The notes beneath the pieces are model-generated. The model had not been told where the DNA came from. It was given only the letters and a program-made list of their open reading frames with translations, and did no database searches. Positions 6,544-43,607 of a DNA stretch of 64,000 nt are shown here, in pieces; within the stretch, counting starts at the first letter, position 1; every line of letters starts with the position of its first letter. Made by a program: the position numbers and the translations under genes. Origin of the DNA: Candidatus Yanofskybacteria bacterium RIFCSPHIGHO2_01_FULL_41_21 (GTDB lineage: Bacteria > Patescibacteriota > Minisyncoccia > 2-02-FULL-40-12 > GWA2-44-9); contig MGJA01000003.1 of assembly GCA_001794025.1 (NCBI GenBank), positions 12,909 through 76,908 of the forward strand, read 5' to 3'.

Positions 6544-6556
6544 AAAGAATAGAGTC

Positions 6557-7071: not shown

Positions 7072-7243
7072 CACAGCGACCAACACCCTAACCCCCAGCG
7101 AGAAGTCGCGGAGGTTCCGAAGCTAGGATTATGTCGATGGGTGCGGAAGACATAATCCGAGGTGCTTGGTGAGGAACCGAGCGGTCTAGATAAAAACCTG
7201 CCGCTGGAGCAGGTTTATTATCGGTCGAGTCGGGGGTTGGGGT
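7072..7243 (-). repeat. MITE-like repeat copy B (172 bp), inverted relative to copy A
   Basis: Reverse complement is identical to 4827-4998. Confidence 0.9.
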
Positions 7244-7253
7244 GGAGGGAGCG

Positions 7254-12221: not shown

Positions 12222-12974
12222 GTGCTAATGTTACACCTATATAACATGTATTTATCTGTTATTATCCCTGCTAAAAACGAAGAGAAGCATATTGGAAAAA
12301 CTGTCCAGTCGGTTTTTGATTATTTGACATCTCGCAATATTGAACATGAGATCATTGTTGTTTCTAATGGTAGTACCGATAAGACCGATGATATAACGCG
12401 TCGGTTGATGGCAACCGTGCCGACGTTGAAACTTATTGATTATAGTCATATGGCGGGTAAGGGTTATGCGGTTAAGCAAGGAATGCTGAAGGCCAGCGGG
12501 CAATTTAGAATGTTTATGGATGCCGATAATTCCACCACGATTAATCATATTGAAAAGATGATGCCGTATTTTAATCAGGGTTACGACGTAGTTATCGGGT
12601 CCATCGCTGTAAAAGGAAAAAAAGTGGCCGAGGGAAGCGAGCCATTCTGGAGAATTTTATTCGGTAAGATGGGTAATATTTTTATTCAGATAATGGCGGT
12701 ACCCGGTATTCATGATACTCAAAGGGGATTTAAAATAGTAACCGCTCAAGCGGCGGAAGATATTTTTCCGAGAATTACAATTATGCACTGGGGGTTTGAT
12801 GTTGAGATGCTGGCCCTGGCCCGTAAATTTGGTCATAAAACAAAAGAAGTGCCGGTTGATTGGCATAATGATCCAAATTCTCGGGTTGGGCTCAAGGCGT
12901 ATTTTGAGGTATTATTAGAAACGATGAAAGTGCGCTGGAATCTCATTACCGGCGTATATAACAAAAGTGCTTAA
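12222..12974 (+). CDS. Family 2 glycosyltransferase (dolichol-P-mannose synthase-like)
   Basis: LSVIIPAKNEE ... DADNST GT-A/DXD signature. Alternative start at 12246. Confidence 0.7.
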   Translation: MLMLHLYNMYLSVIIPAKNEEKHIGKTVQSVFDYLTSRNIEHEIIVVSNGSTDKTDDITRRLMATVPTLKLIDYSHMAGKGYAVKQGMLKASGQFRMFMDADNSTTINHIEKMMPYFNQGYDVVIGSIAVKGKKVAEGSEPFWRILFGKMGNIFIQIMAVPGIHDTQRGFKIVTAQAAEDIFPRITIMHWGFDVEMLALARKFGHKTKEVPVDWHNDPNSRVGLKAYFEVLLETMKVRWNLITGVYNKSA

Positions 12975-17773: not shown

Positions 17774-17798
17774 AAAAGCTCCCTTGCGGGAGCTTTTG
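17774..17798. terminator. Intrinsic terminator hairpin (rnhA 3' end, abutting the rnpB 3' end)
   Basis: AAAAGCTCCCTTGCGGGAGCTTTT. Confidence 0.6.
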
Positions 17799-17800
17799 GT

Positions 17801-18171
17801 CTTGTAAACAATAAGCCGAGTTCTGTTCCGCTAGTTAGCGGAGGGTAACCATTTATCTGGTCTCGGCATTACTGCCGGACTCAAGCGATCTACTTATAAC
17901 TCACAGCCGAAGCTGTAAGCTTTGATCTTGCACCCCGATAAGTGTTTAGCCGTTTCACTCCCGATCTTTTAACCCTGATCGGAACTAAGCTGTAACCTTT
18001 GATAAATCAATGGTCTGGGTTTAGCTCGCCCTTACTTTCGCTTAGGCCGTCTCTGCTCGCAACTCTCGCGTCACCGCGGACGGGAATTACCCGCTATCGT
18101 TTCCGCCTCATCGGCAGATGGTGCTCGGACTTTCCTCTCCTTAATCCATAAGGACTAAGGAGCGATTACCT
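17801..18171 (-). ncRNA. rnpB: RNase P RNA (bacterial type)
   Basis: On the minus strand, the P4 halves GGAGAGGAAAGTCCGAGC and ACAGAACTCGGCTTAT are present. P1 is CTTGTAAAC pairing with GTTTACAAG at the termini. Length ~370 nt. Confidence 0.8.
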
Positions 18172-18275
18172 AGTTTACAAGATAATACAATTATACTCTT
18201 TTTTGATATCAAAAGCAAACTCAACAGATTGAAAAATAACATAGGACATGATAAAGTTAAATACGTCAAATGAAT

Positions 18276-22046: not shown

Positions 22047-24686
22047 ATGTCAGGTAGTGAAAATAAAGGGGTTGGGCAAGCAATGTTTGATGTGAAACCG
22101 GTCAATGAATCCGGTTCTCTTGATGTTCAGAAAATTGACGCCGTTCAACCAGTTGTTAACCTGACTTCTTTTAGGCCCAAAAAACCAAAATTTGGCCAAG
22201 GGAATCAGTCCAAACGACAAAATATTGAAGCTCCGGCCAAAGCGTTAGATGAAAGAAAATTAATTCCACCGCCCACACCATTAGAGGAAATATTGCCACC
22301 GGTGATTGGTTTGCCGTCTCATCAAGAGATTAAAGAACAGTTTGATGAGCTTATGAACCATGATTTGGATCTTAATATTGAGCTGACACAAGCGGGTATA
22401 ATAAAATTATCTGAATCTTCTGGAGAAAAACTTAGGCAGGCGAGACCTCGTTATAGGGTTATCAAAAATCGTAATTTGTCAGCTGTTGAGTCAGAACCCG
22501 ATTCGTATGCTCCTCTCATTTCCGCTATTCATGCATCTGCGACGGCGATTGCCCATGAGGAATATGTTCCACAAGTGCAGACGGAAAATTTTGATACTGA
22601 ATTTGAACCCGGGTCTGTTTTTGGATCAAATGAACTTTCTCAATCGGCCGAGATTGATGTGCGATCACTTTTTTCCGGTTCATCTATTCAACTTGCTTCA
22701 AAAAAATCTTATCCGAAAACGCCACGAGTTTGGAAATGGCCAAGATTTAGAATTAATAAAATCTATGTTTTTATTGCCGTCGTCGTTATCGTTGGGATTA
22801 TAATTATCGTGAGATATGGTATTAGTGTTAAGCGCCAAGTGGTTGAGCAAAGTTCGGCGGCGGTGACCAACCTTCAAACGGCCCAAGACGATTTAAAGAC
22901 CCTGAATTTTAAAAATGCTTCGCAAGATTTTTTTTCAGCTTATGCTAATTTTTCCAAAGCCGGGAATAGTTTGAATTTTTTGGGGGCAGGTGTGGCTGAC
23001 ATTCTTTCAGCTCTCCCCGGTGGCAGTACTCTTAAGTCGGCCAAAAACCTTGTTCAAGTCGGGCAGTTGCTTTCCGGCGCCGGAACTTCAATGACCACTG
23101 CTCTGGATACGGTTTCTAAAACAGGAGCACTTACAGACCCAATGAATTCCCAAGTACCGATTGGCCCAATAGTCAGTGCTTTAAAAAAGGCCTTACTCGC
23201 TTCTCAACAACAAGTTACCAAAGCCAGCGCCCTTATGGTTGATATTGATAGCAGTATCATTCCAGATGATAAACAGGAGAGTTTTAACGATTTAAAATCA
23301 AAACTGCCCGAACTTGAGGCGGGGATGAATATGAGCGTTGATTATGCTAAGTTTTTTGAAAACCTTATCAATAATGGTAAAGCCAAATATCTTGTGATGT
23401 TTCAGAATGCTTCCGAGTTACGACCGACGGGTGGATTCCCCGGGACATATGGCGTTGTATCGTTTGTGAATGGAAAGATGGAGAATCTTTTTGTTGATGA
23501 TGTTTATAATCTTGACGGTCAAATCAAAGAAAATATTATTCCACCGCTTCAAATGCAACACATTACTCCGACGTGGGGGATGCGTGATGCCAATTGGTAT
23601 GTTGATTTTCCGACTTCAGCCCGCAATATTGAAAAGTTTTACAAAAAGGAATCGGGACAAAGCGTTGATGGCGTGATTGTTATCAATCCGGAAATAATTC
23701 AGAAAATTCTTGAGATTGTCGGACCAATTGATATGCCGGATTATAAACTTACCCTTGATTCTAAAAATATTTTAACGACCGTCCAGAGCCAAGTTGAATA
23801 TGGGCCAAATCGGACTCAACCGAAGCAGATTCTCAAGGATTTCGCGCCATTGTTAATGAACAAGATTTATAATGCCGATTCGGATAAATGGCTCGCAATT
23901 TTTAATACTTTGGTTTTAAGCATGAACCAAAAAGATGTATTGATGAGTTTTGATAATTTATCGCTTGAAAGTTTTGTAACTGAGAAAGGTTTTGGTGGTC
24001 AAGTCCATCAGGGTGATACGGATTATCTAATGGCGACGATTACTAATATTAAGGGTTCCAAGACCGATGCGGTGACGGATACTTCAATGGTAGTAAATAC
24101 TAAATTTGAAAATGATGATGCCGTTCATACGCTAACCATTACGCGTAAACATAATGGTGGGGGAGAAAAATATGGATTTTATAATAAACAAAACCCCGCC
24201 TATGTCCGTGTCCTCGTGCCTGATGGCGCAGAGCTGATTTCTATTATTGGTAATGATAAACCAAATTTCACCCCACTTATAAATTATTCCAAAGATAAAA
24301 GTTTCGTTCGCGATGATAATTTGGTTAAGTTTGAAACCCCGCCCCAATCAGGGGCGGGGCAAGCGAGCTTGGCAAAATCTCAAGGCGTTGATTTGTACTC
24401 TGAATCAGGCAAGACCGAATTTGGTTTTTGGCTTATTACCGATGCCGGTAAATCAAAGACGGTCACGGTTCAGTATCGTGTACCAAAAGCTTTAACCGGC
24501 AAAAACTACTCGCTCTATATTCAGAAACAGCCCGCCTTGAAAATAAAGAACTTTAGTTTTTCAATGCAGAAACCCGCCAATCTTACTCCCGAGGCCTCGG
24601 CTCCGCTTCTAACCCAAGATGACTCCACTTACAGTTATTCGGCTCCGCTTGAGAATGATTTACCGATAAAAGTTAATTTTAAATAG
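22047..24686 (+). CDS. Large membrane-anchored extracellular protein (879 aa), possibly DUF4012-like, downstream of the EPS genes
   Basis: Single TM (IYVFIAVVVIVGIIIIV) after a ~230-aa cytoplasmic region. Motif NASELRPTGGFPGTYG. Family assignment is tentative. Confidence 0.5.
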   Translation: MSGSENKGVGQAMFDVKPVNESGSLDVQKIDAVQPVVNLTSFRPKKPKFGQGNQSKRQNIEAPAKALDERKLIPPPTPLEEILPPVIGLPSHQEIKEQFDELMNHDLDLNIELTQAGIIKLSESSGEKLRQARPRYRVIKNRNLSAVESEPDSYAPLISAIHASATAIAHEEYVPQVQTENFDTEFEPGSVFGSNELSQSAEIDVRSLFSGSSIQLASKKSYPKTPRVWKWPRFRINKIYVFIAVVVIVGIIIIVRYGISVKRQVVEQSSAAVTNLQTAQDDLKTLNFKNASQDFFSAYANFSKAGNSLNFLGAGVADILSALPGGSTLKSAKNLVQVGQLLSGAGTSMTTALDTVSKTGALTDPMNSQVPIGPIVSALKKALLASQQQVTKASALMVDIDSSIIPDDKQESFNDLKSKLPELEAGMNMSVDYAKFFENLINNGKAKYLVMFQNASELRPTGGFPGTYGVVSFVNGKMENLFVDDVYNLDGQIKENIIPPLQMQHITPTWGMRDANWYVDFPTSARNIEKFYKKESGQSVDGVIVINPEIIQKILEIVGPIDMPDYKLTLDSKNILTTVQSQVEYGPNRTQPKQILKDFAPLLMNKIYNADSDKWLAIFNTLVLSMNQKDVLMSFDNLSLESFVTEKGFGGQVHQGDTDYLMATITNIKGSKTDAVTDTSMVVNTKFENDDAVHTLTITRKHNGGGEKYGFYNKQNPAYVRVLVPDGAELISIIGNDKPNFTPLINYSKDKSFVRDDNLVKFETPPQSGAGQASLAKSQGVDLYSESGKTEFGFWLITDAGKSKTVTVQYRVPKALTGKNYSLYIQKQPALKIKNFSFSMQKPANLTPEASAPLLTQDDSTYSYSAPLENDLPIKVNFK

Positions 24687-24689
24687 GTC

Positions 24690-25582
24690 GCTCGACTCTG
24701 ACATTTCCCTTGCTGTTCTCTCCGCCTGTCTCGCAACCTCGACCTCGTCACTGATGCCGAACAAAAAGGCCACCTGATTTACGCTTCGCTACAAACATCC
24801 TTTTTGTTACCGGCATAGTTTCCTCGGTCTTTGGGCGAGAAGACGGCGTCGTTCAACGCTCGGAAATGCCCGAGCCGAGCTTATTTTTGTGGTTTTTGGC
24901 CCCTATTTTCAATCTTGACTTTTATATGAAATAAGAGTATAATTAAAATATGATTCAATGAGCAGTTCCTTTCAAGGAGGTTGGTAGTGCCGACAGCAAC
25001 AGCAGTTGAAATCCCTTCTCGTGGTTACGCCGACGTTTTCGATCTTCGGATCGAGGGCGACGGAAAGACTCACGGCGTCGGTGCTGGTTCTCAGTACATC
25101 GGCGGTTACTCCGGCATGGGCTGGTACGAGTACTTCATCGACAGGAATACCGGCGAGAAGTACAAGGTCCACTGCTCGGATGGAGTGAACGGTGGCAAGG
25201 ACGCCCACACCGACAAGGATTGCAAGTGGCGACACGATTGCTACTTGGCAATCATCGAGCGAACTCACGCCGAGACCAAGACCGGCCAGACGGTCGTCTA
25301 CATCTCGCGCAACGAATGGGTCATCATGCAGGGGTTCGACCACGGTAAGTGGTTGGAGACCGCCGAGGGCCTGCGCGACGGCGAGCAGAGCAAGGAGAAC
25401 GTTATCGAAGGTGGATTCATTGGCATGTGCCGAGGCATCCCCGTCGTCTGCGATCTCAAGCGTGTGGACAAACTCCCGCCTCGGGAGTAGCCGAAGCACC
25501 ACAGCATAGGCGGAGGGTTGATCCCTCCGCCGAGCCCGACCAACCCTCGGGTTTTTTCATACAAAAAATTGAGGAGCGAAGC
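24690..25582. other. GC-rich (~60%) foreign island in an otherwise AT-rich chromosome
   Basis: Abrupt composition shift. Both strands are open because of the GC bias. Bounded downstream by MITE-like copy C. Confidence 0.7.
24987..25490 (+). CDS. Hypothetical protein encoded in the GC-rich island
   Basis: AAGGAGG RBS at 24974-24980, 6 nt before a GTG (TTG at 24981 also possible). 168-aa ORF; no motif recognised. The antisense ORF 24972-25502 is regarded as a GC artefact. Confidence 0.45.
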   Translation: MPTATAVEIPSRGYADVFDLRIEGDGKTHGVGAGSQYIGGYSGMGWYEYFIDRNTGEKYKVHCSDGVNGGKDAHTDKDCKWRHDCYLAIIERTHAETKTGQTVVYISRNEWVIMQGFDHGKWLETAEGLRDGEQSKENVIEGGFIGMCRGIPVVCDLKRVDKLPPRE

Positions 25583-25738
25583 CCCTAACCCCCAGCGAGA
25601 AGTTGCGCAGGTCAATTTGCTTTAGCCAATTGACGAACCCCCGAAGCTTGGTGCTTGGTGAGGGGGCGAGCGTCTAGATAGCGCCGAGTCGCTGGAACGA
25701 GGTGACTATCGGTCGAGTCGGGGGTTGGGGGCGGAGCT
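25583..25738 (-). repeat. MITE-like repeat copy C (diverged; same family as 4827-4998 / 7072-7243)
   Basis: Shares ends CCCTAACCCCCAGCGAGAAGT... and ...TATCGGTCGAGTCGGGGGTTGGGG with copy B. The centre is diverged. Confidence 0.7.
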
Positions 25739-25767
25739 TTTGAAAACGAATAAATCAAGATATACTG

Positions 25768-33062: not shown

Positions 33063-33133
33063 TGCGGGATAGTGTAATGGTAGCACGCATGACTCTGAAT
33101 CATGAAATCCAGGTCCGACCCCTGGTCCCGCAG
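33063..33133 (+). tRNA. tRNA-Gln (anticodon CUG)
   Basis: Acceptor TGCGGGA/TCCCGCA, U8, D-stem GTGT/GCAC, anticodon loop CTCTGAA, T-stem CCAGG/CCTGG. Confidence 0.75.
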
Positions 33134-33137
33134 CTAC

Positions 33138-33150
33138 GTTGAGATAGGTT
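33138..33150 (+). repeat. 13-bp direct repeat GTTGAGATAGGTT (copy 1), 4 nt after tRNA-Gln
   Basis: Identical copy at 35197-35209; related CCAGCCAAGGTTGGAG at 33976-33992. Confidence 0.7.
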
Positions 33151-33187
33151 CGGCTTCCGAGGTGCCTTATAAACTAATTAATAATTT

Positions 33188-33529
33188 ATGGAGAATATAA
33201 ATGTATGGCTAGTTATTTTGGGAGTCAGTTTAGCTTGGGGATTATTACATCATAAGGCAGGATATTATGCAGATATGAATAAACATAATGAGGCCTTTAA
33301 ATTTTTGGAATTTTGGCGTTGTTGTCTTAACTACTTTATAGCATTAGTTGTCGCATATTACTTTGTTTCAATAAGATGGGGGTATATTAATCAGGGGGGT
33401 AATCTTTATATAGGAGATTTTATCTTGGGAACCATTTTTCTTATTGGTATTTTCGGTTGGCTACCTTATTTTATTAAAAATATTACTGAGGGGATAAGTG
33501 CAATTTTCACTAAATTATTTACTAAATAG
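33188..33529 (+). CDS. Hypothetical small membrane protein
   Basis: 3 TM helices; first gene of the accessory array. Confidence 0.5.
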   Translation: MENINVWLVILGVSLAWGLLHHKAGYYADMNKHNEAFKFLEFWRCCLNYFIALVVAYYFVSIRWGYINQGGNLYIGDFILGTIFLIGIFGWLPYFIKNITEGISAIFTKLFTK

Positions 33530-33543
33530 ACCCACTACAAACC

Positions 33544-33960
33544 ATGATGACACCAAATGAAGCAGAAAAAATTATAAACAATTACGGAGCGGCATTAGGC
33601 GTCGGCACAAATGGTACTGCTCGTCTGATCTCTTTGCTCCCAGCTTCCAAAGCAAAGATTAGGTATGCTTTTTATGTTTACATTGCTGAGCTGGTAAAAA
33701 ACAGTCAACTTACTAAGGAGATAGGTAATAATCTAGTTGGTGCTTATATAGGATTAAGATCATTTATTGATGACAAAAAGGCTGATAAGTTTAATAAAAT
33801 TCACAGACAAATAGAAGAAGAAGTAAAGACAAAAAATAATTCAGATATCGACACAGAGGAAAAGAAAGAATATATGGATTTTATTAAAGAAGTGTATGGA
33901 ATCATGGCCGATATGGCCGAAATTAATGACTATATACGAGAGTGCCAGGAAGATATATAA
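33544..33960 (+). CDS. Hypothetical protein (138 aa)
   Basis: ORF 14 nt after the previous gene. No motif recognised. Confidence 0.45.
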   Translation: MMTPNEAEKIINNYGAALGVGTNGTARLISLLPASKAKIRYAFYVYIAELVKNSQLTKEIGNNLVGAYIGLRSFIDDKKADKFNKIHRQIEEEVKTKNNSDIDTEEKKEYMDFIKEVYGIMADMAEINDYIRECQEDI

Positions 33961-34098
33961 ATAACTAGTCCAAGGTGTCCAGCCAAGGTTGGAGGTATCG
34001 TGGATGACCAGAAAGCGAGATTTTGCTACAATTTTTACAACGAGTATAATGACCTAATCTAATTGATAAAGAACTTGATGGTTTATTGAAATAAAACT

Positions 34099-35166
34099 AT
34101 GGCACTAATAATTTCACAAAAAGGTAAAAGAACTCAAAAGATAGACAAGTCTGATTTTGAAAAGGAAGGAAACCTTCAGAGCTATATCCATGAAAATCCG
34201 GAATCTATTCCGGTGTATGAGATAGAAGAAAGCAAGCGGCTTTTTGTCGTAGCAAGGGAGTTTAAAACCGAATCAGGTCCGATTGATGCTTTAGCTATAG
34301 ATAAAGATGGCGATATTTATGTCGTTGAAACCAAGCTATATAAGAATCCGGATAAGCGAACCGTAGTGGCGCAGGCACTTGATTATGGTGCATCTCTTTG
34401 GCGTCATAGCGATTATAGTGAATTTATAAAGCTAATTAACGAAGAGATAAATAAAAGATTTAAAATCAGTTTTGAGGAAAAAGTTAGAAATTTCTTTGAT
34501 ATAGATGAAGAACAGACAGGGGCATTATTAGAAGCGATCAGAACGAACCTTCAACAAGGAAATATTAAATTTGTAATTTTAATGGATGACGTTAGCGACC
34601 GGCTAAAAGATCTGATTGTCTATATCAATCAAAACAGCCAGTTTGATATTTATGCAGTTCAGATGGAATATTACAAGTTTGAAAGTTATGAAATAATGAT
34701 CCCCAAATTATTCGGTGTTGAAGTTAAAAAAAGCATGACGAGCAACTCCGCTGGCAGTCCGAGGAGAAAGTGGGATGAGCAAGGTTTTTTTGAAGAAGTA
34801 AAGAAAGTGTTTTCAAAATCCGATTTTGAGTTAATTTTAAAGTTCTACACTTTTTCCAAAGAGTCAGCCGATGAAATTCATTGGGGTACTGGTGTTAACC
34901 AAAGTTCTTTTTCTGCTGGGTTTAATAAGTTAGGGAATAGGCCCTTGTTCGTTCTCCTTTCTGACGGAAGAATGAAAATTTCAACCGAATACCCAAAACG
35001 AGGAGCAACTAAAGAGCAAATTTCCAATCTAGATCATCTTAATTTAGAGCTTAAGAAAATAGGATTGGAAGTGAACCCAAAATCCGAGAGAACTGTTTTT
35101 ACTCTACCTGAGTGGTCATCTAAACTAGATGTTATGATAAAAACTATTAAGAAATCAATAGATTGA
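34099..35166 (+). CDS. NucS/DUF4263-superfamily PD-(D/E)XK nuclease-domain protein (nuclease domain N-terminal)
   Basis: GPIDALAIDKDGDIYVVETK...VVAQALDYGASLW matches the G-x-ID-x-LA-x-D...VV-E-x-K...Q-L-x-Y core of NucS-like nucleases. Confidence 0.55.
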   Translation: MALIISQKGKRTQKIDKSDFEKEGNLQSYIHENPESIPVYEIEESKRLFVVAREFKTESGPIDALAIDKDGDIYVVETKLYKNPDKRTVVAQALDYGASLWRHSDYSEFIKLINEEINKRFKISFEEKVRNFFDIDEEQTGALLEAIRTNLQQGNIKFVILMDDVSDRLKDLIVYINQNSQFDIYAVQMEYYKFESYEIMIPKLFGVEVKKSMTSNSAGSPRRKWDEQGFFEEVKKVFSKSDFELILKFYTFSKESADEIHWGTGVNQSSFSAGFNKLGNRPLFVLLSDGRMKISTEYPKRGATKEQISNLDHLNLELKKIGLEVNPKSERTVFTLPEWSSKLDVMIKTIKKSID

Positions 35167-35196
35167 ATTCTAACATCGAACCAAATTACCAGCCAA

Positions 35197-35209
35197 GTTG
35201 AGATAGGTT
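35197..35209 (+). repeat. 13-bp direct repeat GTTGAGATAGGTT (copy 2)
   Basis: Identical to 33138-33150. Downstream CCCGAGACGCATCGTGGCCTT resembles 33151-33170. Confidence 0.7.
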
Positions 35210-35285
35210 ATTTTGCCCGAGACGCATCGTGGCCTTACTTCTATTCCTATCCCGTAAAAGCATATCGACTGAGTGCCGTATTCAA

Positions 35286-35320
35286 GAACATAAAACCGCC
35301 AATATAGCGGTTTTATGTTC
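35286..35320. terminator. Strong palindromic hairpin (14-bp arms) in a long AT-rich leader
   Basis: GAACATAAAACCGC CAATATA GCGGTTTTATGTTC. Confidence 0.5.
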
Positions 35321-35580
35321 TTTCGCGGATGAGTGAAACAGTCCTTGTGGATAAGTTTGATCAAGGGGCAAAAGTTAGTAGTATATAGTTACTATTTTAA
35401 AAATATTTTTTGTAAAAATTATGAAAGAAAACTCTTATAAAATAAGGGTTACTTCAATTAGGATGTAATACATCTTTACATAAAAACCGATAATTACCGA
35501 TATAAACAGATGAAACTCTTGATATTATATACCATTAAGTTATAATTGTTTTTATGAGTATAGATTATTAACTAAAAATT

Positions 35581-35964
35581 ATGAGCAACACCGACCCACT
35601 TCAAAAATTAGTTGTCAGTGAATCGCAGGCAGTTGATAGACAGGCCCTTGCAGATCTATTGTCACCATATCTATCAATAAATAAAGAAACTCAGTCTTTT
35701 GATTTTTCGGGAGCCTTCCTGGAATTGACAAGTGCGGATAGGATTCTAATTCTTCTTTCTGCCGCGAAAGCCAGGAATCTGATCCTTGGTTTAGATGAAA
35801 AAATTAGACCATTGGAAATAATAAAGATGGAGATTGCGCCTGAGGGGACTATTAAAAATACGCTGAAGAAGCTTCTCGCATCTAAAGACATCAAGGCAGA
35901 CGAGGGTAAATATTACCTGCCGAACTATAAGCTCTCCCAAGTTATAGCCCGATTCAAAAAATAA
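35581..35964 (+). CDS. Hypothetical protein A (127 aa) of a tightly linked three-gene unit
   Basis: Preceded by a 414-bp AT-rich leader. 10-nt gap to the next gene. Confidence 0.5.
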   Translation: MSNTDPLQKLVVSESQAVDRQALADLLSPYLSINKETQSFDFSGAFLELTSADRILILLSAAKARNLILGLDEKIRPLEIIKMEIAPEGTIKNTLKKLLASKDIKADEGKYYLPNYKLSQVIARFKK

Positions 35965-35974
35965 TTAAAATAAT

Positions 35975-36388
35975 ATGGACAACACTAATTTTGAGCAGAA
36001 AATATTGGAGCGTATGTCGGCACTTGAACAGAGGGTTGATAAACTTGAGAATGGCGGAAGTAAAACCGTTAATGCTCATGGTGTCGCAAAAAAGTTATCA
36101 ATCAAAGAGTTTATTATGACTAAAAAACTTGATGACGATGTTAAACGTACTTTGGCGATCGCGTACTTTATTGAACACATGGAAAATACAAAGCCATTTA
36201 ATACCGAAGATCTTAAAAAGGCCTTTCGTCTCGCAAAGATTTCGTTGCCATTGAATATTAATGACAAGATTAACATGAATATTCGTGTCGGCAGGATAAT
36301 GGAAGCAGAAGAAAAAAAGGATTCCAAGAAGGCCTGGGAACTTACAGCAACTGGGGAGACTTTCGTGGAGAACGAACTTAATAAATAG
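35975..36388 (+). CDS. Hypothetical protein B (137 aa; coiled-coil N-terminus)
   Basis: ILERMSALEQRVDKLENG heptad pattern. Confidence 0.5.
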   Translation: MDNTNFEQKILERMSALEQRVDKLENGGSKTVNAHGVAKKLSIKEFIMTKKLDDDVKRTLAIAYFIEHMENTKPFNTEDLKKAFRLAKISLPLNINDKINMNIRVGRIMEAEEKKDSKKAWELTATGETFVENELNK

Positions 36389-36400
36389 TTGATATTCCAA

Positions 36401-37069
36401 ATGAAAGAAAAAAGGTCTGCAAAAAATTCTACTGATGCCCTAATTATTCTTTGGGAAGAAGGATTCTTTAAGAAATATCAGAACTTTAAAAGTGTCTGTG
36501 AAAATCTATCGAGCCGAGGTAATAATTTTCCCTACTCAAGTTTAGCTATAGCTCTTAGGCAAGCTAAATTTTTAACGCGGAGAGGTAAACGGGGATTTTT
36601 TGAGTATATTCAAAAACACAAAGCTGATTCGGAAGTAATAAAAGCCATTGCTCCAGGTTTATTCTCTGATGAGTTATTAAAATCGCTTCAAAAAGATTTC
36701 AAGATAGAGCTAGAAGATCTCAAATACAATTATGGTAAGAGTGGCAACTGCACAGCATTTTTATTACGGAAGATTTTAGAAAAATTAATTTATATTACTT
36801 TTGCAAAGCACAATCTCATTTCAAAACTAGAAGATAAATCTCAAACTGGTCGGTTTGTTGGACTTGAAGCGATGATTAGATTAGCTTCTTCAGAAAAAAT
36901 AGAGGGAGTTCCTTTTCTCATATCAAAAACTGCAAATGAAATTCAGAGCATTAAATTTTTAGGGGACACATCTGCCCACAATCATTTGGTGGAGGTCGAT
37001 ATGAAAACTATAGTCCCACAAATGCCCTACATAATTACTGCGTATAAGGAATTAGTTAAAAAATTATAA
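36401..37069 (+). CDS. Hypothetical protein C (~222 aa)
   Basis: ATG 12 nt after the gene B stop (TTG at 36389 also in frame). No motif recognised. Confidence 0.5.
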   Translation: MKEKRSAKNSTDALIILWEEGFFKKYQNFKSVCENLSSRGNNFPYSSLAIALRQAKFLTRRGKRGFFEYIQKHKADSEVIKAIAPGLFSDELLKSLQKDFKIELEDLKYNYGKSGNCTAFLLRKILEKLIYITFAKHNLISKLEDKSQTGRFVGLEAMIRLASSEKIEGVPFLISKTANEIQSIKFLGDTSAHNHLVEVDMKTIVPQMPYIITAYKELVKKL

Positions 37070-37298
37070 TATGAACAAACCACAAAAATTGTTTGTAGAA
37101 CGCTTATTTAGATGGTAGGTATGGTGTGAAAAAATCACATACTACGAAACCACTCGTGACGACTGGTACTCAGGCAAATGCGATTAAGAAAGCAGAGAAT
37201 GTGGATCCTAATGAGTTGTTAGTTGAGTGTGTTAGAGATACAAAAGTTGGAGGGCGAGATGGGTGGTGTAAACCCTAATAAACTGCTAATATTTCATT

Positions 37299-38483
37299 AT
37301 GGAAAAAGAAAAAATACTCCGACAGTTCCAAGACTTCTTGGTTAGCTATAATGCCGTCCAAAAAGACGAGATCTGGCAAAAGCAGTCCAATATCTTTAGG
37401 ACTTTTTGGAACCAAAGAGTCCTAAATGATCAGGTCAAAGAACTTGATGATTTTGAAATCGATAACGTAATTCGACTGATCGACTATAATTCTAAGGGCA
37501 AAAAAGCTGGCGATGAGGCGGTTGCCAAGGTTATGATCCCGCAAGGTGTTTGGCGAAAAATGTTCAATCAGTTTAAAACGGATAAGAAACTCGCCCAACT
37601 TGTCGATCAAATAATGGGAACATTTGAGCAAGATAAACGCATAAAGCTAATTGACGAACTTTATAAATATAACGAACCGTACCGCAACAGTTTAACTGGC
37701 CAAAGTGGTAATGCTGTTAATTCTTTTATATTTTTATGGGCACCATTAAAAAACATCAGTATCATTTCTTTAAAAGATAGGCAGAAATTAATTCAATTCC
37801 TAGATGTCCAGAATGGACCAAACTTCGAGAATGATTCTACTGCCAAGAAGATTGTTGAATCTAACGATTCTCTGGCCTCAAGCTTTGCTAAAATATTTGG
37901 CAGTCAATATTCTCCTAGAACAATATGCTCCTTCTTTTACAGCCCTCTGATTAAGAATGAATGGCGGTCTGAGGATATTGGAGAAGAAACTGTCCCTTGG
38001 GGTGGTTGGAAAAAATCACCAGAAGAAGATTTTGCACCAATTATAGCCGAATCATCTATGCTGGGCGACCCAGCCCTTTTCTATATGGAAAGTCAGCTCG
38101 AAGATTTTCTGATAGAAAATTGGGACAAAACAGAACTTGGTCAGAAGTACGATTTAATTGAAGAAGAAGGCGAAGTAGTTAGCCAACAATATAGAACAGG
38201 AGTGGGTCTAATAGATATTCTCGCCCGAGACAAGAAAACCAAACAACTTGTTGTTATTGAATTAAAAAAGAATCAAACAAGTGATGATACTGTGGGTCAA
38301 CTCGCTAGATATATGGGATGGCTCGAAGAAAATAAAACTAATGGTAAGCTAACCAAGGGTATTATCATAGCCGCCCAATATGATCAAAGATTGTACTATG
38401 CTCTAAAGAAAATGCAGGACGCAGAGGTTTATTTATATCGAGTGGATTTTAAACTTACAGAGTTCAAAGATGGCTCAAAATAA
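37299..38483 (+). CDS. NucS/Shedu(DUF4263)-like protein with C-terminal PD-(D/E)XK nuclease domain
   Basis: C-terminus GVGLIDILARDKKTKQLVVIELKKNQTSDDTVGQLARYMGWL matches the NucS-like/DUF4263 catalytic core. The N-terminal ~300 aa are unassigned. Confidence 0.55.
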   Translation: MEKEKILRQFQDFLVSYNAVQKDEIWQKQSNIFRTFWNQRVLNDQVKELDDFEIDNVIRLIDYNSKGKKAGDEAVAKVMIPQGVWRKMFNQFKTDKKLAQLVDQIMGTFEQDKRIKLIDELYKYNEPYRNSLTGQSGNAVNSFIFLWAPLKNISIISLKDRQKLIQFLDVQNGPNFENDSTAKKIVESNDSLASSFAKIFGSQYSPRTICSFFYSPLIKNEWRSEDIGEETVPWGGWKKSPEEDFAPIIAESSMLGDPALFYMESQLEDFLIENWDKTELGQKYDLIEEEGEVVSQQYRTGVGLIDILARDKKTKQLVVIELKKNQTSDDTVGQLARYMGWLEENKTNGKLTKGIIIAAQYDQRLYYALKKMQDAEVYLYRVDFKLTEFKDGSK

Positions 38484-38600
38484 GCGGATTAGCTAAAAAA
38501 GTGACACTCTCAAGTAGTGTCCATTTTATCCCTTTTTAGCCTGCCTGAGACGCTTCGTTTGTGATAAGATTTGGATAATTAACCTTTCAATAAAAACTCA

Positions 38601-38963
38601 ATGAAAAAGATTTACTACAATAAACTTATACGCGATAAGATACCCGAAAAGATTAAACGGAACGGCGGGGACTACAAGATAAATAAGCTTAATCAGAAGC
38701 TTTTTGAGGTAGAACTCTTAAAAAAAGTCGGAGAAGAGGCGAGTGGGCTTTTATCTTCTAAGACAAAAGAAGAAGTTACCTCTGAACTTGCCGATATTAT
38801 TGCTGTGATAGAGGAGATAAAAAAATTAAAACATATTACATCAAAACAAATTTCAGAAGCATTGAAAATAAATTTTGATAAAAAGGGAGGATTCAATAAG
38901 AAACTATTTTTAGTATGGTCTTCCGATACCGGATATAAGACCAATGAAAAGAGGAACAAATAG
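38601..38963 (+). CDS. MazG-like / PRA-PH-like nucleoside triphosphate pyrophosphohydrolase
   Basis: YNKLIRDKIPEKI...EEASGLL...ELADIIAVIEEI pattern typical of small all-alpha NTP-PPase proteins. Confidence 0.5.
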   Translation: MKKIYYNKLIRDKIPEKIKRNGGDYKINKLNQKLFEVELLKKVGEEASGLLSSKTKEEVTSELADIIAVIEEIKKLKHITSKQISEALKINFDKKGGFNKKLFLVWSSDTGYKTNEKRNK

Positions 38964-39066
38964 TTTAGAGATTTTAACCGAATCAAGGAGAGAGAAAAAG
39001 GGGTCAGGTCCCTTTTCTTCTGCTCGAGGCCCATCGTTATGATAAGATAAATAATAAGTTAATTTT

Positions 39067-39462
39067 ATGAGTGAACAAATATCAACGCCGGAAAAAGTAT
39101 CTAGAGAGCAAGCTCTCGCTATGTATAGAAAATTTGTAGAGCGTGGAATTACCAGTCCCGATGCTTTAGATTTGAATGATCCCGAAGTTATTGAAGCGAA
39201 TAAACTATTTGAAAAATGGGACGCGCAAGAGAGTGTAAAAGGAGATTTTGAAAGGCATAATTTTGAAAAGACCAAGTTTTATGTTGATGCTGGATTTACC
39301 GACTCTAATTATCTTGGGGATGTTCTAGGATGGCTCTTTCAAGATGCGGGAGATATAGAAAAGCAACCAGATAATCCCACTCGAGTTCAATTGCGAAGCG
39401 ACTACGCAAAAGAGATAAAAAAGATCAGGGACTTATTGGGCTTGGCCACCGGTGGGAATTGA
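39067..39462 (+). CDS. Hypothetical protein (131 aa)
   Basis: ORF preceded by intergenic modules M1/M2. No motif recognised. Confidence 0.45.
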   Translation: MSEQISTPEKVSREQALAMYRKFVERGITSPDALDLNDPEVIEANKLFEKWDAQESVKGDFERHNFEKTKFYVDAGFTDSNYLGDVLGWLFQDAGDIEKQPDNPTRVQLRSDYAKEIKKIRDLLGLATGGN

Positions 39463-39492
39463 GCCGACAGTCGGCTCAATTCCCACCATTTG
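39455..39492. repeat. 38-bp perfect palindrome GGTGGGAATTGAGCCGACAGTCGGCTCAATTCCCACC (copy 1); identical copy at 42567-42603
   Basis: Exact duplicate 3.1 kb away. Followed in both cases by TTTGAGCCGAT... and CCGAGACACGTTGCTA modules. Confidence 0.8.
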
Positions 39493-39577
39493 AGCCGATG
39501 CTGTTATTGATCAAGGTGGTGTTCAGCTAAGGTTAGACGGGTTATTCCGCCTGAGACACGTTGCTAGTTTAAAATTT

Positions 39578-40798
39578 ATGAAAAATATTCCATTTACAGA
39601 AAAACAAATTAGAGATTTTGTAAAAGATCATCCAACGCCATTTTATGTTTATGATGAAGATGGAATTCGCCATTCTGCCCGGAAACTTATCGATAGTTTT
39701 TCGTGGAATTCTAGTTTTAAAGAATTTTTTGCGGTTAAGGCAACTCCAAATCCAAGTATCTTAACTATTCTAAAAGAAGAAGGTTGTGGCGCTGATTGTA
39801 GCTCGTTTCCAGAATTGCTTCTTGCTGAACGTGTAGGAATACGAGGAGAAGATATTATGTTTACCTCAAATGATACGCCAGCTGAAGAATTCAGAAAAGC
39901 TAGTGAACTTGGTGCGATCATTAATCTAGATGATCTTTCCCATCTTGATTATTTGGAAAAAGAAGTTGGCTTACCAGAATTAATCAGTTTTCGCTATAAT
40001 CCCGGATCTTTAACGGGTAATGTTATTATCGGGACACCAAAAGAGGCAAAATTTGGGATTACAAAGGAACAATTACTTGAAGCATACCGGATCGCAAAAG
40101 AAAAAGGAGTGAAACGTTTTGGTCTCCATACGATGATTGCTTCCAATGAGCTTAATCCACAACATTTTATAAATACAGCGGAGATGATTTTCGATATTGC
40201 CTTAGAACTGAAAGAAAAAATTGGAATCAAAGTGGAGTTTATTAACCTGGGTGGTGGGTTTGGAATTCCTTACAAACCTGAGCAAGAAGAGCTTGATCTT
40301 TCCGTTGTGTCGGAGGGAGTCCAGAAACTCTATGAAAAAATGGATATGGCACCAATAAGGTTATTTTTTGAGAGTGGTCGATACATTACTGGTCCGCATG
40401 GTTATCTTATTTCCCGTGTACGCCATATAAAGAACACCTACAAAAAATACATTGGCCTTGATGCTTCAATGGCAGATCTTATGAGACCTGGAATGTACGG
40501 TGCATATCATCACATCACCGTTCTCGGTAAAGAAAAAATGCCATACGATGTAACCTGTGATGTGACAGGTTCATTGTGTGAAAATAATGACAAGTTTGCT
40601 GTCGACCGCAAGTTACCTGAAATAAACACTGGAGACATAGTCATCATTTATGATGTCGGGGCCCATGGCCACTCGATGGGGTTTAATTATAACGGTAAAC
40701 TTAGATCTTCAGAATTTCTACTCGGATCAAATGGTAAAATGAAAATAATACGTAGAGCAGAAACTATAAATGATTATTTTGCAACCTTAAATTTTTAG
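39578..40798 (+). CDS. Fold-type III PLP-dependent decarboxylase (DAP / ornithine / carboxynorspermidine decarboxylase family)
   Basis: TPFYVYDE ... FFAVKATPNPSILTIL ... GGGFGIPY motifs of the Orn/DAP/Arg decarboxylase family. Confidence 0.65.
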   Translation: MKNIPFTEKQIRDFVKDHPTPFYVYDEDGIRHSARKLIDSFSWNSSFKEFFAVKATPNPSILTILKEEGCGADCSSFPELLLAERVGIRGEDIMFTSNDTPAEEFRKASELGAIINLDDLSHLDYLEKEVGLPELISFRYNPGSLTGNVIIGTPKEAKFGITKEQLLEAYRIAKEKGVKRFGLHTMIASNELNPQHFINTAEMIFDIALELKEKIGIKVEFINLGGGFGIPYKPEQEELDLSVVSEGVQKLYEKMDMAPIRLFFESGRYITGPHGYLISRVRHIKNTYKKYIGLDASMADLMRPGMYGAYHHITVLGKEKMPYDVTCDVTGSLCENNDKFAVDRKLPEINTGDIVIIYDVGAHGHSMGFNYNGKLRSSEFLLGSNGKMKIIRRAETINDYFATLNF

Positions 40799-40902
40799 CT
40801 CCGTCCGAAACGTGTAGTTTATGATAAGATTTGGATAGCTACTAATTGCCTTGCGGGGCTTGACCGTTTGACGGTTCCAGCTCGAAGTGATTCAGTATAA
40901 TT

Positions 40903-41463
40903 GTGTCATCCATGAATTCTTCTATTTATCAGATTAAAATTACTCTCAAAGACTCAAAACCACTAATTTGGCGAAGATTTTTAGTTTTTTCAGATATTTC
41001 TTTATATAAGTTGCACAAAGCCATCCAAATTATTATGGGATGGGAGGATTATCATCTGCATCATTTTGAAGTAGGAAGAAATTTTTATGGAATTCCAGAC
41101 CCAGATTTTGATGATGGTACTATAAATGGAAAAGGGATCCTATTGAAAGATATTGTTCCGAAAATTCCGTCTCAGTTTTTGTATGAGTATGATTTCGGAG
41201 ATAGTTGGGACCATATTATATTGGTAGAGAAAGTTATGAATTCAGAGTTGAAAATGAAGCATCCAATTTGTATTGACGGTAAAAGAGCTTGCCCTCCAGA
41301 GGATGTTGGAGGTATTTGGGGGTACCAGCATTTTTTAAAGGTTCTTGGAAACCCTAAACACAAAGAATATCGGGATTTAAAAGAGTGGATAGGTGGCAAA
41401 TTTAACCCAGAACACTTTAATAAAGAATTAGTTAATGAAATTTTAAAAAAGATTAAGTATTAG
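40903..41463 (+). CDS. pRiA4b ORF-3-like family protein (PF07929-like)
   Basis: LYEYDFGDSWDHIILVEK and 'IKITLKDSKPLIWRRFLV' motifs. Confidence 0.55.
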   Translation: MSSMNSSIYQIKITLKDSKPLIWRRFLVFSDISLYKLHKAIQIIMGWEDYHLHHFEVGRNFYGIPDPDFDDGTINGKGILLKDIVPKIPSQFLYEYDFGDSWDHIILVEKVMNSELKMKHPICIDGKRACPPEDVGGIWGYQHFLKVLGNPKHKEYRDLKEWIGGKFNPEHFNKELVNEILKKIKY

Positions 41464-41477
41464 TGTTAAAATATAGT

Positions 41478-41521
41478 CATAACCGTGAAAATACAACAAT
41501 TATCAGCGTTTTTCACGGTTA
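41478..41521. promoter_or_regulatory. 15-bp-arm inverted repeat (CATAACCGTGAAAAA ... TTTTTCACGGTTATG) followed by a TTGACA -35-like hexamer upstream of fic
   Basis: Perfect inverted repeat with an ~18-nt spacer. TTGACA at 41524-41529. Confidence 0.4.
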
Positions 41522-41560
41522 TGTTGACAGAGTCGTGAAAAAAGAGTAAGATTACAGTAT

Positions 41561-42448
41561 ATGGTAAAAGTACTCAACGCCTTCAATAAAGTGAGTTTTC
41601 TTCGTGAGAGATACTATAAAGCATCAATAGGTAAGGATGCGCTTATTACGCTTATATCTGAAACTGAAGTTGTCGACCAGGTTTACAACTCTAATGCTAT
41701 TGAGAATAGCACTCTCACTCTTGAAGAAACCGAAAAGATACTTCTTCAAATTGATTTAGATAGATTCATCTCCGAACGAGAAATTTTTGAAGCAAAAAAT
41801 TTGGCGCGAGTTGTATCGTACATAGACAAAAAAGCTAAGGAACAAGAACTTACTCTTGAGGTGATTTTATCACTTCATAAAATGTTGATTTCAAATATTC
41901 GCGACGATGTTGCGGGGAGGTTTAGAAAGGATGATGAACATGTTCGTGTGGGGAATCATATTGCTCCTAATCCAAAAGAAGTAATGAGTCGTCTTGAAAA
42001 AATGCTGACTGAGTACAATGCAACGAGTCATGAAAACATAATTAAACGTATTGCCAGATTACATCTCGCTTTTGAACACACCCATCCATTTGTCGATGGT
42101 AATGGACGTATTGGACGTGTTATTAATAACTATTTACTGATTAGAGAAGGATTTGTGCCAATAAACATAAAATTTATTGATAGAAAAAAATATTATGAAG
42201 CTTTTAAAGAATTTGATGAAAAGGGCGTCGTTACTATTATGGAAGAAATAGTAGGCAGGGCGCTTACCAATAGCTATCATAAAAGATTGGCCTATTTAGA
42301 AGGTAAAAAAATTATCACTCTCATTGATTATGCAAAAAATAACAAACTTTCTCATTCTAATTTGATCAATAAAGCTAATCGACAAACCATCGAAGCTTTT
42401 TTAGAAAAGAATATTTGGAAAATCGGAGTGGATGATGTAATTAAATAA
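41561..42448 (+). CDS. Fic/Doc family protein (adenylyltransferase-like)
   Basis: Canonical Fic motif HPFVDGNGRIGR. Confidence 0.85.
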   Translation: MVKVLNAFNKVSFLRERYYKASIGKDALITLISETEVVDQVYNSNAIENSTLTLEETEKILLQIDLDRFISEREIFEAKNLARVVSYIDKKAKEQELTLEVILSLHKMLISNIRDDVAGRFRKDDEHVRVGNHIAPNPKEVMSRLEKMLTEYNATSHENIIKRIARLHLAFEHTHPFVDGNGRIGRVINNYLLIREGFVPINIKFIDRKKYYEAFKEFDEKGVVTIMEEIVGRALTNSYHKRLAYLEGKKIITLIDYAKNNKLSHSNLINKANRQTIEAFLEKNIWKIGVDDVIK

Positions 42449-42566
42449 TAAATAAAAATAACTTATAAATTCTGCTCGAGGCCTGTCATTTATGATAAGA
42501 TTTGAATAGTTAACCCTTCGATAAAAACTCAGGGTAATAAACACTCTGTAGGGCCTGTCGCTGGTG

Positions 42567-42603
42567 GGAATTGAGCCGACAGTCGGCTCAATTCCCACCA
42601 TTT
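42567..42603. repeat. 38-bp perfect palindrome (copy 2)
   Basis: Identical to 39455-39492. Confidence 0.8.
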
Positions 42604-42646
42604 GAGCCGATACCGTTCTGGTCTGGTCCGAGACACGTTGCTAAAT

Positions 42647-43255
42647 ATGGATTTAAAATCAACATATAATTATATAGCTGAAGATTGGACCAAAGACCAT
42701 GAGAACGATACTTGGTGGATTGCTGGTACAGACAAATTTGCTTCGTATTTAAAGCAAGGCAGGAGTGTCTTAGATGTTGGTTGTGCCAGTGGAATGAAAT
42801 CGGAATATCTTGCTAAGAAAGGTTTTGTTGTAACGGGAGTTGATTTCTCAGGCAAGATGATTGAGTTAGCACAAAAAAGAATGCCCTCCCGATTCTTTTT
42901 TGTGAGAGATATAAACGAACCCTTAAATTTAAAATCAAAATTTGATGGAATATTTGCTCAAGCTGTTTTACTTCATGTTCCAAAAAATAATATCAAAAAA
43001 GTTCTAGGCAATTTGCTTGAACTATTAAAATCGAATGGGTATATTTACATCGCTGTTAAGAAAGTAAACGAGGGACAGATTGAAGAACAAGTTATAAAAG
43101 AAAACGATTATGGCTATGAGTATGAGAGGTTTTTCAGCTTTTATACTTTAGATGAGATGAGAGGATATCTTGAAGAATTTGGATTAAAGATTGTATATAG
43201 CGACGTCATTTCAACTGGTAAAACTGAGTGGATCCAAGTTATTGCTCAAAAATAA
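42647..43255 (+). CDS. Class I SAM-dependent methyltransferase
   Basis: Motif I LDVGCASGMKSEYLAKKG. The ATG follows the CCGAGACACGTTGCTAAAT module, as at 39578. Confidence 0.7.
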   Translation: MDLKSTYNYIAEDWTKDHENDTWWIAGTDKFASYLKQGRSVLDVGCASGMKSEYLAKKGFVVTGVDFSGKMIELAQKRMPSRFFFVRDINEPLNLKSKFDGIFAQAVLLHVPKNNIKKVLGNLLELLKSNGYIYIAVKKVNEGQIEEQVIKENDYGYEYERFFSFYTLDEMRGYLEEFGLKIVYSDVISTGKTEWIQVIAQK

Positions 43256-43316
43256 CTCTACTTGAGCCGACACTGTTCTTGTTCGAGGTGGTCAACAAAA
43301 AACTTTAAATAATTTT

Positions 43317-43604
43317 ATGAAGTCGTTAATAAAAAAACCCAGCGCTTGGATTCCAATAATAATTCCACTTATCTTTTTTGCGTATCTGGTTATTTATATT
43401 TCTATCTTTGGTATTGTCCGAGAGGAGGATGAAGGGACGGGCGCGCATCTTTTTCAGTTATGGTTGGCCCTGGAACCGCTGATGGTCGGATTTTTCGCCA
43501 TCAAATGGCTACCGCGTGCACCAAAACAGGCAATATTCATTCTGGCGCTCCAAATTGTTGCCGCCCTCTTGCCGATATCCGTTGTCTTCTATTTTAGATT
43601 ATAA
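43317..43604 (+). CDS. Hypothetical membrane protein (95 aa)
   Basis: 3 TM helices. Confidence 0.45.
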   Translation: MKSLIKKPSAWIPIIIPLIFFAYLVIYISIFGIVREEDEGTGAHLFQLWLALEPLMVGFFAIKWLPRAPKQAIFILALQIVAALLPISVVFYFRL

Positions 43605-43607
43605 TTT

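Follow-up and report, generated by a model that had tools for sequence, protein, structure and literature searches.

The window analysed here, the whole 64,000-nt stretch of DNA, carries three copies of a repeat that we call E1, at the edges of two blocks of inserted DNA (Table 1). It belongs to a metagenome-assembled genome of Candidatus Yanofskybacteria, and its MurJ is 100% identical to an NCBI protein under that name. Two of the copies enclose a block between the convergent genes parB and relA/spoT: c1 starts 7 nt past the parB stop codon on the plus strand, and c2, on the minus strand, begins directly at the end of relA/spoT, after its stop codon. Between them lie a DNA methyltransferase, a PD-(D/E)XK nuclease and a short open reading frame. 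The third copy, c3, stands upstream of murJ, in a block that also holds a second structured repeat, E2, and a GC-rich gene cassette. The first-pass annotation had described a repeat of three copies, with two internal hairpins, one of them followed by a T-tract, and a third copy that keeps both ends, differs in its centre and lies at the boundary of the only GC-rich segment. This description is borne out throughout. Copies c1 and c2 form a 189-nt inverted repeat of 97% identity, with 172 nt identical (c1 4827-4998), and both contain the two hairpins, one of which (4864-4886 in c1, within helix P2) is followed by TTATCT. Copy c3 has the ends and several internal blocks in common with them, while one hairpin module is swapped and sits at another position. 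It adjoins the only GC-rich stretch of the window (~24975-25740, 58-62% GC against 41% overall).

Table 1. Coordinates of the features at the two inserted blocks and at related loci. Positions are those of the window unless a locus is named.
Feature	Position	Strand	Details
Inserted block 1	4820-7253		c1, DNA methyltransferase, PD-(D/E)XK nuclease, 84-aa ORF and c2; ~2.4 kb (2.43 kb)
E1 copy c1	4827-5015	folding strand -; first-pass orientation +	covariance-model match 4855-4977, 61.5 bits
c1 helix P2	4858-4891		terminator-like in parB sense
N4/N6 DNA methyltransferase	5137-5970		block 1
PD-(D/E)XK nuclease	5963-6493		block 1
84-aa ORF	6557-6811	-	block 1
E1 copy c2	7065-7253	folding strand +; first-pass orientation -	covariance-model match 7103-7225, 61.5 bits
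Inserted block 2	24687-25745		E2, GC-rich gene cassette and c3; ~1.06 kb; right boundary approximate
E2, structured repeat unrelated to E1	24690-24882	+	~190-nt rod-like fold; left edge of block 2
GC-rich cassette	24915-25560	+	promoter-like sequence, Shine-Dalgarno AAGGAGG, orphan gene, hairpin plus T-run
Promoter-like TTGACT-17-TATAAT	24915-24943	+	GC-rich cassette
167-aa orphan gene	24987-25490	+	58.5% GC
Hairpin plus T-run	~25509-25558	+	terminator-like; end of GC-rich cassette
E1 copy c3	25576-25738	folding strand + (G-rich); first-pass orientation -	covariance-model match 25600-25713, 124.9 bits, E 9e-30
c3 helix P1	25581-25593 / 25720-25732	folding strand +	
c3 helix P7	25604-25608 / 25668-25672	folding strand +	
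c3 variable hairpin P6	25611-25634	folding strand +	
c3 helix P3	25638-25642 / 25662-25666	folding strand +	
c3 helix P4	25644-25647 / 25653-25656	folding strand +	followed by invariant GGTGA
c3 helix P2	25677-25710	folding strand +	loop CGCTGGA at 25690-25696
Promoter-like TTGAAA-15-TATACT	25741-25767	+	between c3 and murJ start; putative, read from the sequence
E2 elsewhere	L031 2309-2493		
E2 elsewhere	L026 7696-7881	-	
E2 elsewhere	L002 788-970	-	
E2 elsewhere	L051 4002-4215		
Motif AATYGTGCAGATTGAGAAAAAT	window 5022-5050; L036 ~993-1021; L029; L021 (3867, 12278, 12832); L022; L032		
~100-nt hairpin motif	L021 ~12856-12960	+	
~100-nt hairpin motif	L022 ~2030-2140	-	
~100-nt hairpin motif	L032 ~3651-3760	+	

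The two 12-mers by which the ends were first recognized occur three times each without mismatch, in matching pairs (4840/4982 on the plus strand, 7240/7098 and 25728/25595 on the minus strand). Allowing up to two mismatches, the 12-mers alone are found six times where about three are expected, which is not above chance. A 41-nt degenerate pattern of the core, by comparison, matches exactly the three E1 sites where none is expected, and a covariance model of the core finds these three copies and no others in the 64 kb. Whichever strand is taken, all three fold far more stably than shuffled versions of their sequence (z = -3.4 to -7.3).

Beyond the window, a 19-mer from the 5' block of E1 identified 12 true loci in three Patescibacteria metagenome-assembled genomes (MAGs), ten of them contigs of a single MAG, most of which end at the repeat; two matches in Actinomycetota are chance matches. 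A pattern made from the central blocks only gave 21 true loci, in groundwater and other metagenomes, and R1, the covariance model of the core, returned 31 matches that represent 26 distinct copies, including three that the patterns had missed. Every copy is intergenic, and one MAG of about 1 Mb holds at least ten near-identical copies at which its assemblies break. E1 is a multi-copy intergenic repeat family of Patescibacteria. The Rfam 15 covariance models gave no E1 match in the window at gathering score, and at E values up to 10 only chance-level matches to c1 and c3. Pattern scans of viral contigs gave no matches, and a literature search for an earlier description of E1 in Patescibacteria returned nothing relevant. 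No transposase, integrase or reverse transcriptase, and no autonomous element combining a transposase with the same ends, lies beside any copy or occurs among the 28 proteins scanned.

The strand that folds best is the G-rich one, the reverse complement of the orientation in which the element was first described. On this strand E1 forms a three-way junction, consisting of a closing helix P1 (12-25 bp) made by the two ends, a helix P7 (consensus AAGUCGCGC / GAGCGUCU) and a hairpin P2. P7 carries a swappable arm in which an invariant GA ... UGGUGA internal loop separates P3 from P4 (AAGC/GCUU), with or without P6. The site of the variable hairpin differs among copies, being the P4 loop in the c1 type and ahead of P3 in the c3 type, and the hairpin is missing from minimal copies of 85-87 nt (L008, L027b, L021b). 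P2 has a fixed length of 34 nt, with one bulged base and the invariant loop CGCWGGA, and the junction bases UCUAGAU and UAUCGGU are likewise invariant. A candidate pseudoknot between the P2 loop and a CCAGCG stretch near the 5' end was rejected; the two do not covary, and the stretch is missing in L020, L028 and L031.

The helices are maintained by compensatory change. In the model-fitted alignment of the 26 distinct copies, 96.4% of 607 cells hold standard pairs, a proportion that falls to 34-48% when the partners are slid by one to three columns; this alignment leans towards the model, but the fixed-length P2 aligns identically with MAFFT. Double changes affect 16 of 26 pairs (89 cells, with cells and copies not phylogenetically independent), and none of 500 shuffles reaches the observed values. 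Further compensatory changes can be read directly off the sequences, such as C-G, U-A and U.G at P7 column 5/78, and U6-A77 and C2-G81 in L021b. P1 is paired in all 23 complete copies despite at least 11 unrelated classes of arm sequence, with a mean duplex energy of -29 kcal/mol, compared to -15 for arms combined across copies. Ten loci have unrelated yet pairing ends (L020, L023, L026, L027b, L028, L031, L021b, L002, L008, L019), and in L020 the helix reaches 25 bp and takes in the final two rpsP codons. In the dominant subfamily the imperfect terminal repeat extends over about 25 nt, and a (T/G)CGCT motif is found again immediately beyond each element end, still within the repeated unit.

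The mismatches that the fold tolerates are not distributed evenly between the strands. Core helices hold 14 G.U cells against two A.C cells, plus 17 G.A cells, mostly in tandem. P1 holds 33 G.U against 14 A.C, of which about 13 each come from one fixed site adjoining the core, so that away from this site the split is about 20 to 1; as with the pair counts, neither cells nor copies are phylogenetically independent. Random transitions in a double-stranded inverted repeat should yield G.T and A.C in equal number, and the excess of G.U therefore argues for selection on a single folded strand, which could be either RNA or single-stranded DNA, as G.T and tandem G.A are tolerated in both. E1 is defined by a conserved multi-helix fold and not by transposon-style ends.

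These results bear directly on the proposal that E1 is a MITE with short terminal inverted repeats (TIRs). The ends do pair, as the first-pass annotation saw, but the arms fall into so many unrelated sequences that there is no conserved transposase-type end. E1 is a real multi-copy intergenic family as well, but its interior is conserved instead of its ends, and neither a transposase nor a target-site duplication was found. The proposal had been staked on copies sharing conserved ends, and ten loci do not. With ends conserved only as a helix and the interior conserved as sequence, the pattern is the reverse of what defines a MITE, and the classical reading fails.

The position of E1 relative to genes follows two patterns. 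About half of the copies have their C-rich strand in sense and lie 0-12 nt past a stop codon, as c1 does behind parB, c2 behind relA, and further copies behind ligA, lepA, RNase J and an HtrA-like gene. In the remaining copies the folding strand is in sense, and they lie either in the gap of a co-directional gene pair or ahead of a start codon, mostly by 4-31 nt and in a few cases by 73-199 nt; examples are L020 between rpsP and sua5, L031 between serS and ftsQ, copies upstream of gpmI and of an SBP gene, and c3 upstream of murJ. Most copies elsewhere lie between housekeeping genes and have no cargo.

It had also been suggested that E1 doubles as an intergenic terminator, and for part of the family the sequence supports this. 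A P2 variant with A/U flanks (AAACCUGY ... RCAGGUUUUUAUC) is terminator-like on the C-rich strand, and all eight copies of this type with known context are in sense, 0-12 nt past a stop codon. In the c1/c2 type, a G+C stem stands between an A-run and a T-run, with GCAGGTTTTTATCT after the stem, 40-60 nt past the parB and relA stops. A simple terminator scanner did not flag the P2 of c1 and c2, because part of the T-run pairs with the upstream A-run. From their sequence, copies with the A/U-flanked P2 are putative terminators, whereas c3-type copies lack the T-run in P2. No conserved promoter or terminator was found flanking the folding strand.

Several short motifs accompany E1. A near-palindromic motif, AATYGTGCAGATTGAGAAAAAT, occurs 30-45 nt from the same end of many copies, in either orientation, and the tail of c1 (5000-5050) has the motif ATCATGCAGATTGAGAAAAAT in common with locus L036. 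The tail motif GTGCAGAT was considered as the start of a conserved open reading frame and rejected, as it opens only short frames that are not conserved. Beside E1 in L021, L022 and L032, one per locus, is a long-hairpin, RNA-like motif of about 100 nt (UUUCUCUGGG ... CAUGGCCYGACAGG ... CCAGAGAAA), which has no Rfam match even at E values up to 10 and was not found in the window. A perfect 20-nt palindrome, CCTGCCTGCCGGCAGGCAGG, is present in the window at 52624-52647 and 54053-54076 and is also inserted within an E1 copy in L029 (~5150). The -10 part of the promoter-like sequence between c3 and murJ is common to the window and L060, a relative with an empty site.

Comparison with relatives places E1 at sites of gain and loss. 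In L053/L054, whose RelA is 84% identical, convergent parB and relA overlap by 4 nt with no element between them, and the flanking synteny is that of the window (dprA-topA-relA / parB-parA). In L051/L052 (RelA 96% identical), relA is followed by an internally deleted E1 that keeps both P1 arms and has lost the core; next to this remnant is a different, fairly GC-rich, foreign-looking gene. RelA/SpoT itself (7254-8756, minus strand) is about 487 aa in this clade and is without the C-terminal domain PF28438 of most Patescibacteria homologues (575-600 aa). Truncation of relA by E1 was considered and rejected; an element-free relative has the same 487-aa RelA, and the truncation therefore predates the insertion. 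In the parA-parB spacer (3815-3915), there is a 24-nt inverted repeat pair where a relative has a PDDEXK_3 gene.

The second block is likewise absent from L056, L058 and L060 (MurJ 83-88% identical), in which DUF4012 and murJ overlap or lie 33 nt apart. Its left edge is formed by E2, whose core is a perfect 10-bp stem (AACAAAAAGG/CCTTTTTGTT) and for which 27 of 55 predicted pairs have compensatory changes among five sequences. Two assemblies of this population break within E2. We considered whether the left edge might be a degenerate inverted partner of c3, since 'TAG|GTCGCTCGACTC' resembles an E1 end. This was rejected, as a local alignment of 24681-24920 with E1 scores like shuffles, the covariance model finds nothing there and the region is E2. 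In L026 and L002, an E1 copy follows E2 downstream at a distance of 30-40 nt, the two having nothing in between, and the window thus resembles an E2-E1 pair enclosing a gene. Both E2 and c3 fold on the strand from which DUF4012, the orphan gene and murJ are read. The enclosed gene has 24 homologues, all unannotated, and those in three other genomes are 57-60% GC in surroundings of 33-48% GC, in unrelated contexts and with no E1 nearby. The high GC content goes with the orphan gene itself, independently of E1. A cold-shock domain is fused to two of the homologues, and in some assemblies the gene is a stand-alone contig of 608 nt.

Presence of E1 differs between relatives at five orthologous sites. 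In addition to parB/relA and DUF4012/murJ, L020 has a copy between rpsP and sua5, where the window has a 30-nt spacer; L033 has one downstream of lepA, where the window has none; and L031 has one between serS and ftsQ, where L021 has none. L021 and L032 have E1 in opposite orientations in the same intergenic region. Gene boundaries are where E1 comes and goes, and each of the three copies in this genome stands at an edge of DNA that close relatives lack. The association with acquired DNA claimed earlier is supported for this genome, but it is not general, given the housekeeping neighbours of most other copies and the GC-rich homologues without E1. The compared genomes are 70-96% identical, so exact element boundaries cannot be read, and in these comparisons we found no footprint of precise excision or insertion. 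A check for target-site duplications gave no direct repeat at the c1, c2, c3, L036, L020 and L031 junctions or against empty sites, at a resolution that does not reach 2-nt duplications. The flanks of c1 and of the L036 copy agree over 7 nt on the upstream side (AAATAGT, in L036 the last bases of a gene) and over about 55 nt on the downstream side, which looks like segmental copying or recombination rather than precise transposition.

Accessory DNA is also found elsewhere in the window. A low-GC region (34-39%, ~33100-45500) begins right after tRNA-Gln (33063-33134) and encodes a NucS/PDDEXK-type nuclease, a Fic/DOC protein, a pRiA4-ORF3-like protein and methyltransferases; its spacers hold repeated blocks of 54-60 nt (38528, 40788, 42459) and near-identical hairpins (39451, 42563). 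A class A RNase P RNA lies at 17797-18181 (minus strand, 133.9 bits). Contig L024, from another assembly of the same population and 100% identical elsewhere, lacks 157 nt inside rpsP (507-663) and 233 nt inside uppP/bacA (1530-1762), which are probably assembly defects rather than biology.

We tentatively favour a model, with somewhat less than even confidence, in which E1 is a non-autonomous, fold-defined mobile repeat of Patescibacteria that is used in part as a terminator and borders accessory insertions. The unit of selection would be the single-stranded fold and not a pair of conserved terminal repeats. Copying of E1 may proceed via the G-rich strand as a single-stranded DNA or RNA intermediate, with a putative trans-acting enzyme recognizing the element by shape; both steps are suggested by the strand asymmetry and by analogy with REP/RAYT and IS200/IS605 logic. 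Once inserted, the repeat would serve as a hairpin or terminator module between tightly packed genes and, alone, in inverted pairs or with E2, would border small insertions of accessory genes. As E1 borders such insertions, we propose that it acts as a vehicle or landing pad for acquired cassettes. Mobility is not the only way to read the data. Orthologous copies with wholly different P1 arms (L008 and L027b; L023 and L036) fit long vertical inheritance under host selection at least equally well.

The main rival to the mobile-repeat reading is that E1 is a structured RNA with a function for the host, acting in cis in untranslated or intercistronic regions or as a small RNA, duplicated by recombination and selected for its fold. 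We consider this possible, at perhaps half the weight of the reading we favour. Such an RNA could be a processing, stability or termination module, or could bind a protein. Covariation, the invariant loop and junction bases, and G.U and tandem G.A on one strand are all as expected of RNA, and the segment CCCCC-GA-AGC / GCU-UGGU-GA-GGGGG is k-turn-like, by resemblance only. Among copies that have a unique P1 and lie between co-directional genes, most have the folding strand in sense (L020, L031, L008/L027b, L026, L021b and c3), E2 and c3 in the second block are arranged all in sense, and the orthologous pairs just named hold the fold while P1 diverges completely. Against a host RNA, about half of the copies (c1, L019, L022, L023, L025, L027a, L032, L036) are antisense to the only plausible transcript, directly past its stop codon, and the folding strand has no conserved flanking promoter or terminator. 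Neither the number of near-identical copies in a genome of about 1 Mb, with assemblies broken at the repeat, nor the lack of a matching Rfam family is what this reading would lead one to expect.

Two further explanations take E1 as a DNA site. The cargo is always on the same side of E1, and this suggested that E1, with E2, might be a folded recombination site at which a site-specific recombinase inserts cassettes, much as at integron attC or other folded single-stranded attachment sites. In four of four cases in this lineage, namely the restriction-modification genes at c1 and at c2, the orphan gene at c3 and the other gene at the L051 remnant, foreign-looking DNA is on the 5' side of the folding strand and a core host gene is found at 0-31 nt from the opposite end. 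The closing helix is kept as structure and not as sequence, folding is strand-specific, and E2 and E1 adjoin each other in L026 and L002, where no cargo is present, and enclose cargo in the window. The common P1 even has CCCCAAC...GTTAGGG, which resembles the attC core sites RYYYAAC...GTTRRRY. Other P1 variants have no such sites, though, and a conserved interior with variable ends is the reverse of attC. There are no arrays, no integrase was found in the checked parts of the window, and most copies elsewhere lack cargo; c1 and c2, being inverted, would on recombination invert the segment between them and not excise it. We regard this explanation as improbable. Still less credible, and disfavoured by us, is a classical cut-and-paste MITE, in which a DDE transposase would bind the TIRs, insertion would duplicate the target site and the internal terminator would be there by accident. 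Small size, high copy number, intergenic position and paired ends would all suit a MITE, as would the extended terminal repeat of the dominant subfamily, and the inverted pair c1/c2 around restriction-modification genes resembles a composite transposon. Beyond the free ends and conserved interior, what decides against it is that all internal helices covary and show strand asymmetry, that no junction read has a duplicated target sequence and that no transposase adjoins any copy.

Patescibacteria (the Candidate Phyla Radiation) have tiny, packed genomes in which few mobile elements or regulatory RNAs have been recognized. E1 and E2 show that their short intergenic spaces are built of exchangeable structured modules, and modules of this kind border two accessory insertions in the window, a restriction-modification system and a GC-rich orphan gene. 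It is tempting to speculate further, although we think it rather unlikely, a little more so than a host RNA, that E1 and E2 are the RNA or single-stranded DNA component of an undescribed gene-insertion system, or that E1 is a widespread non-coding RNA of a new structural class, having a three-way junction and a k-turn-like element. In such an insertion system, an enzyme that recognizes the fold would set E1/E2 modules, together with the cassettes enclosed by them, exactly between neighbouring genes of highly compact genomes. Should a partner enzyme exist, Patescibacteria would have a new way of gaining genes; if the fold acts as RNA, it would be a new multi-copy RNA class absent from Rfam. In practical terms, repeats of the E1 type break metagenome assemblies and could be used as markers of strain-variable sites.

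Among known systems, REP and REPIN sequences come close to E1. They are extragenic, found at 3' gene ends and between convergent genes, are selected for a hairpin fold, and have secondary uses as terminators or mRNA stabilizers; they are mobilized by RAYT proteins, which are IS200-like Y1 transposases, and single-stranded, strand-specific recognition is their accepted logic. E1 is likewise extragenic, multi-copy, often at 3' gene ends, selected on its fold and secondarily terminator-like. REPs, however, are simple palindromes of 20-40 nt with a conserved GTAG, whereas the multi-helix fold of E1 spans 125-190 nt, is organized by a three-way junction, with swappable arms and an invariant loop of 7 nt, and contains neither the short palindrome nor the tetranucleotide; no RAYT gene was identified in the 64-kb window. 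IS200/IS605-derived elements have separate subterminal hairpins at each end but lack inverted ends, insert 3' of a fixed tetra- or pentanucleotide and have a TnpA (Y1) or TnpB partner; the ends of E1, unlike theirs, pair, and neither TnpA nor TnpB is among the 28 proteins scanned.

The MITEs of the Correia/NEMIS, ERIC and RUP families are 100-200 bp long and intergenic, act as terminators or RNA-processing sites and can bracket genes, and E1 resembles them in its intergenic position, pairing ends, terminator-like hairpin and ability to bracket genes. Their terminal repeats and duplicated target sites (such as TA) are conserved and their interior is freer; E1 has the opposite pattern, free ends and a conserved interior, with no target duplication seen. 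More generally, E1 is small, non-coding, multi-copy and insertion-polymorphic in the manner of DDE-type MITEs, but has neither conserved TIRs nor target-site duplications. With integron attC sites, it has in common a folded single strand, a closing helix conserved as structure and a place beside gene cassettes. attC sites are further characterized by R''/R' boxes (RYYYAAC/GTTRRRY), a variable centre, arrays in the same orientation and IntI. In E1, box-like sequences occur only in the dominant P1 subfamily, and it is the centre that is conserved; c1 and c2 stand in inverted orientation, and neither arrays nor IntI were found. The P2 of the c1/c2 type is similar to an intrinsic terminator, having a G+C stem with flanking A-run and T-run, but it is one module of a larger conserved fold, and the c3 type lacks the T-run.

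The bcr repeats of the Bacillus cereus group are interspersed and intergenic, show compensatory helix changes and are ambiguous between mobile element and non-coding RNA. E1 too is an interspersed intergenic repeat with covarying helices and an ambiguous nature, although it is unrelated in sequence and host, and we know of no description of bcr repeats at insertion borders or paired with a second repeat, as E1 is with E2. E1 is best filed among the bacterial structured interspersed repeats, with a minority chance that it marks something mechanistically new.
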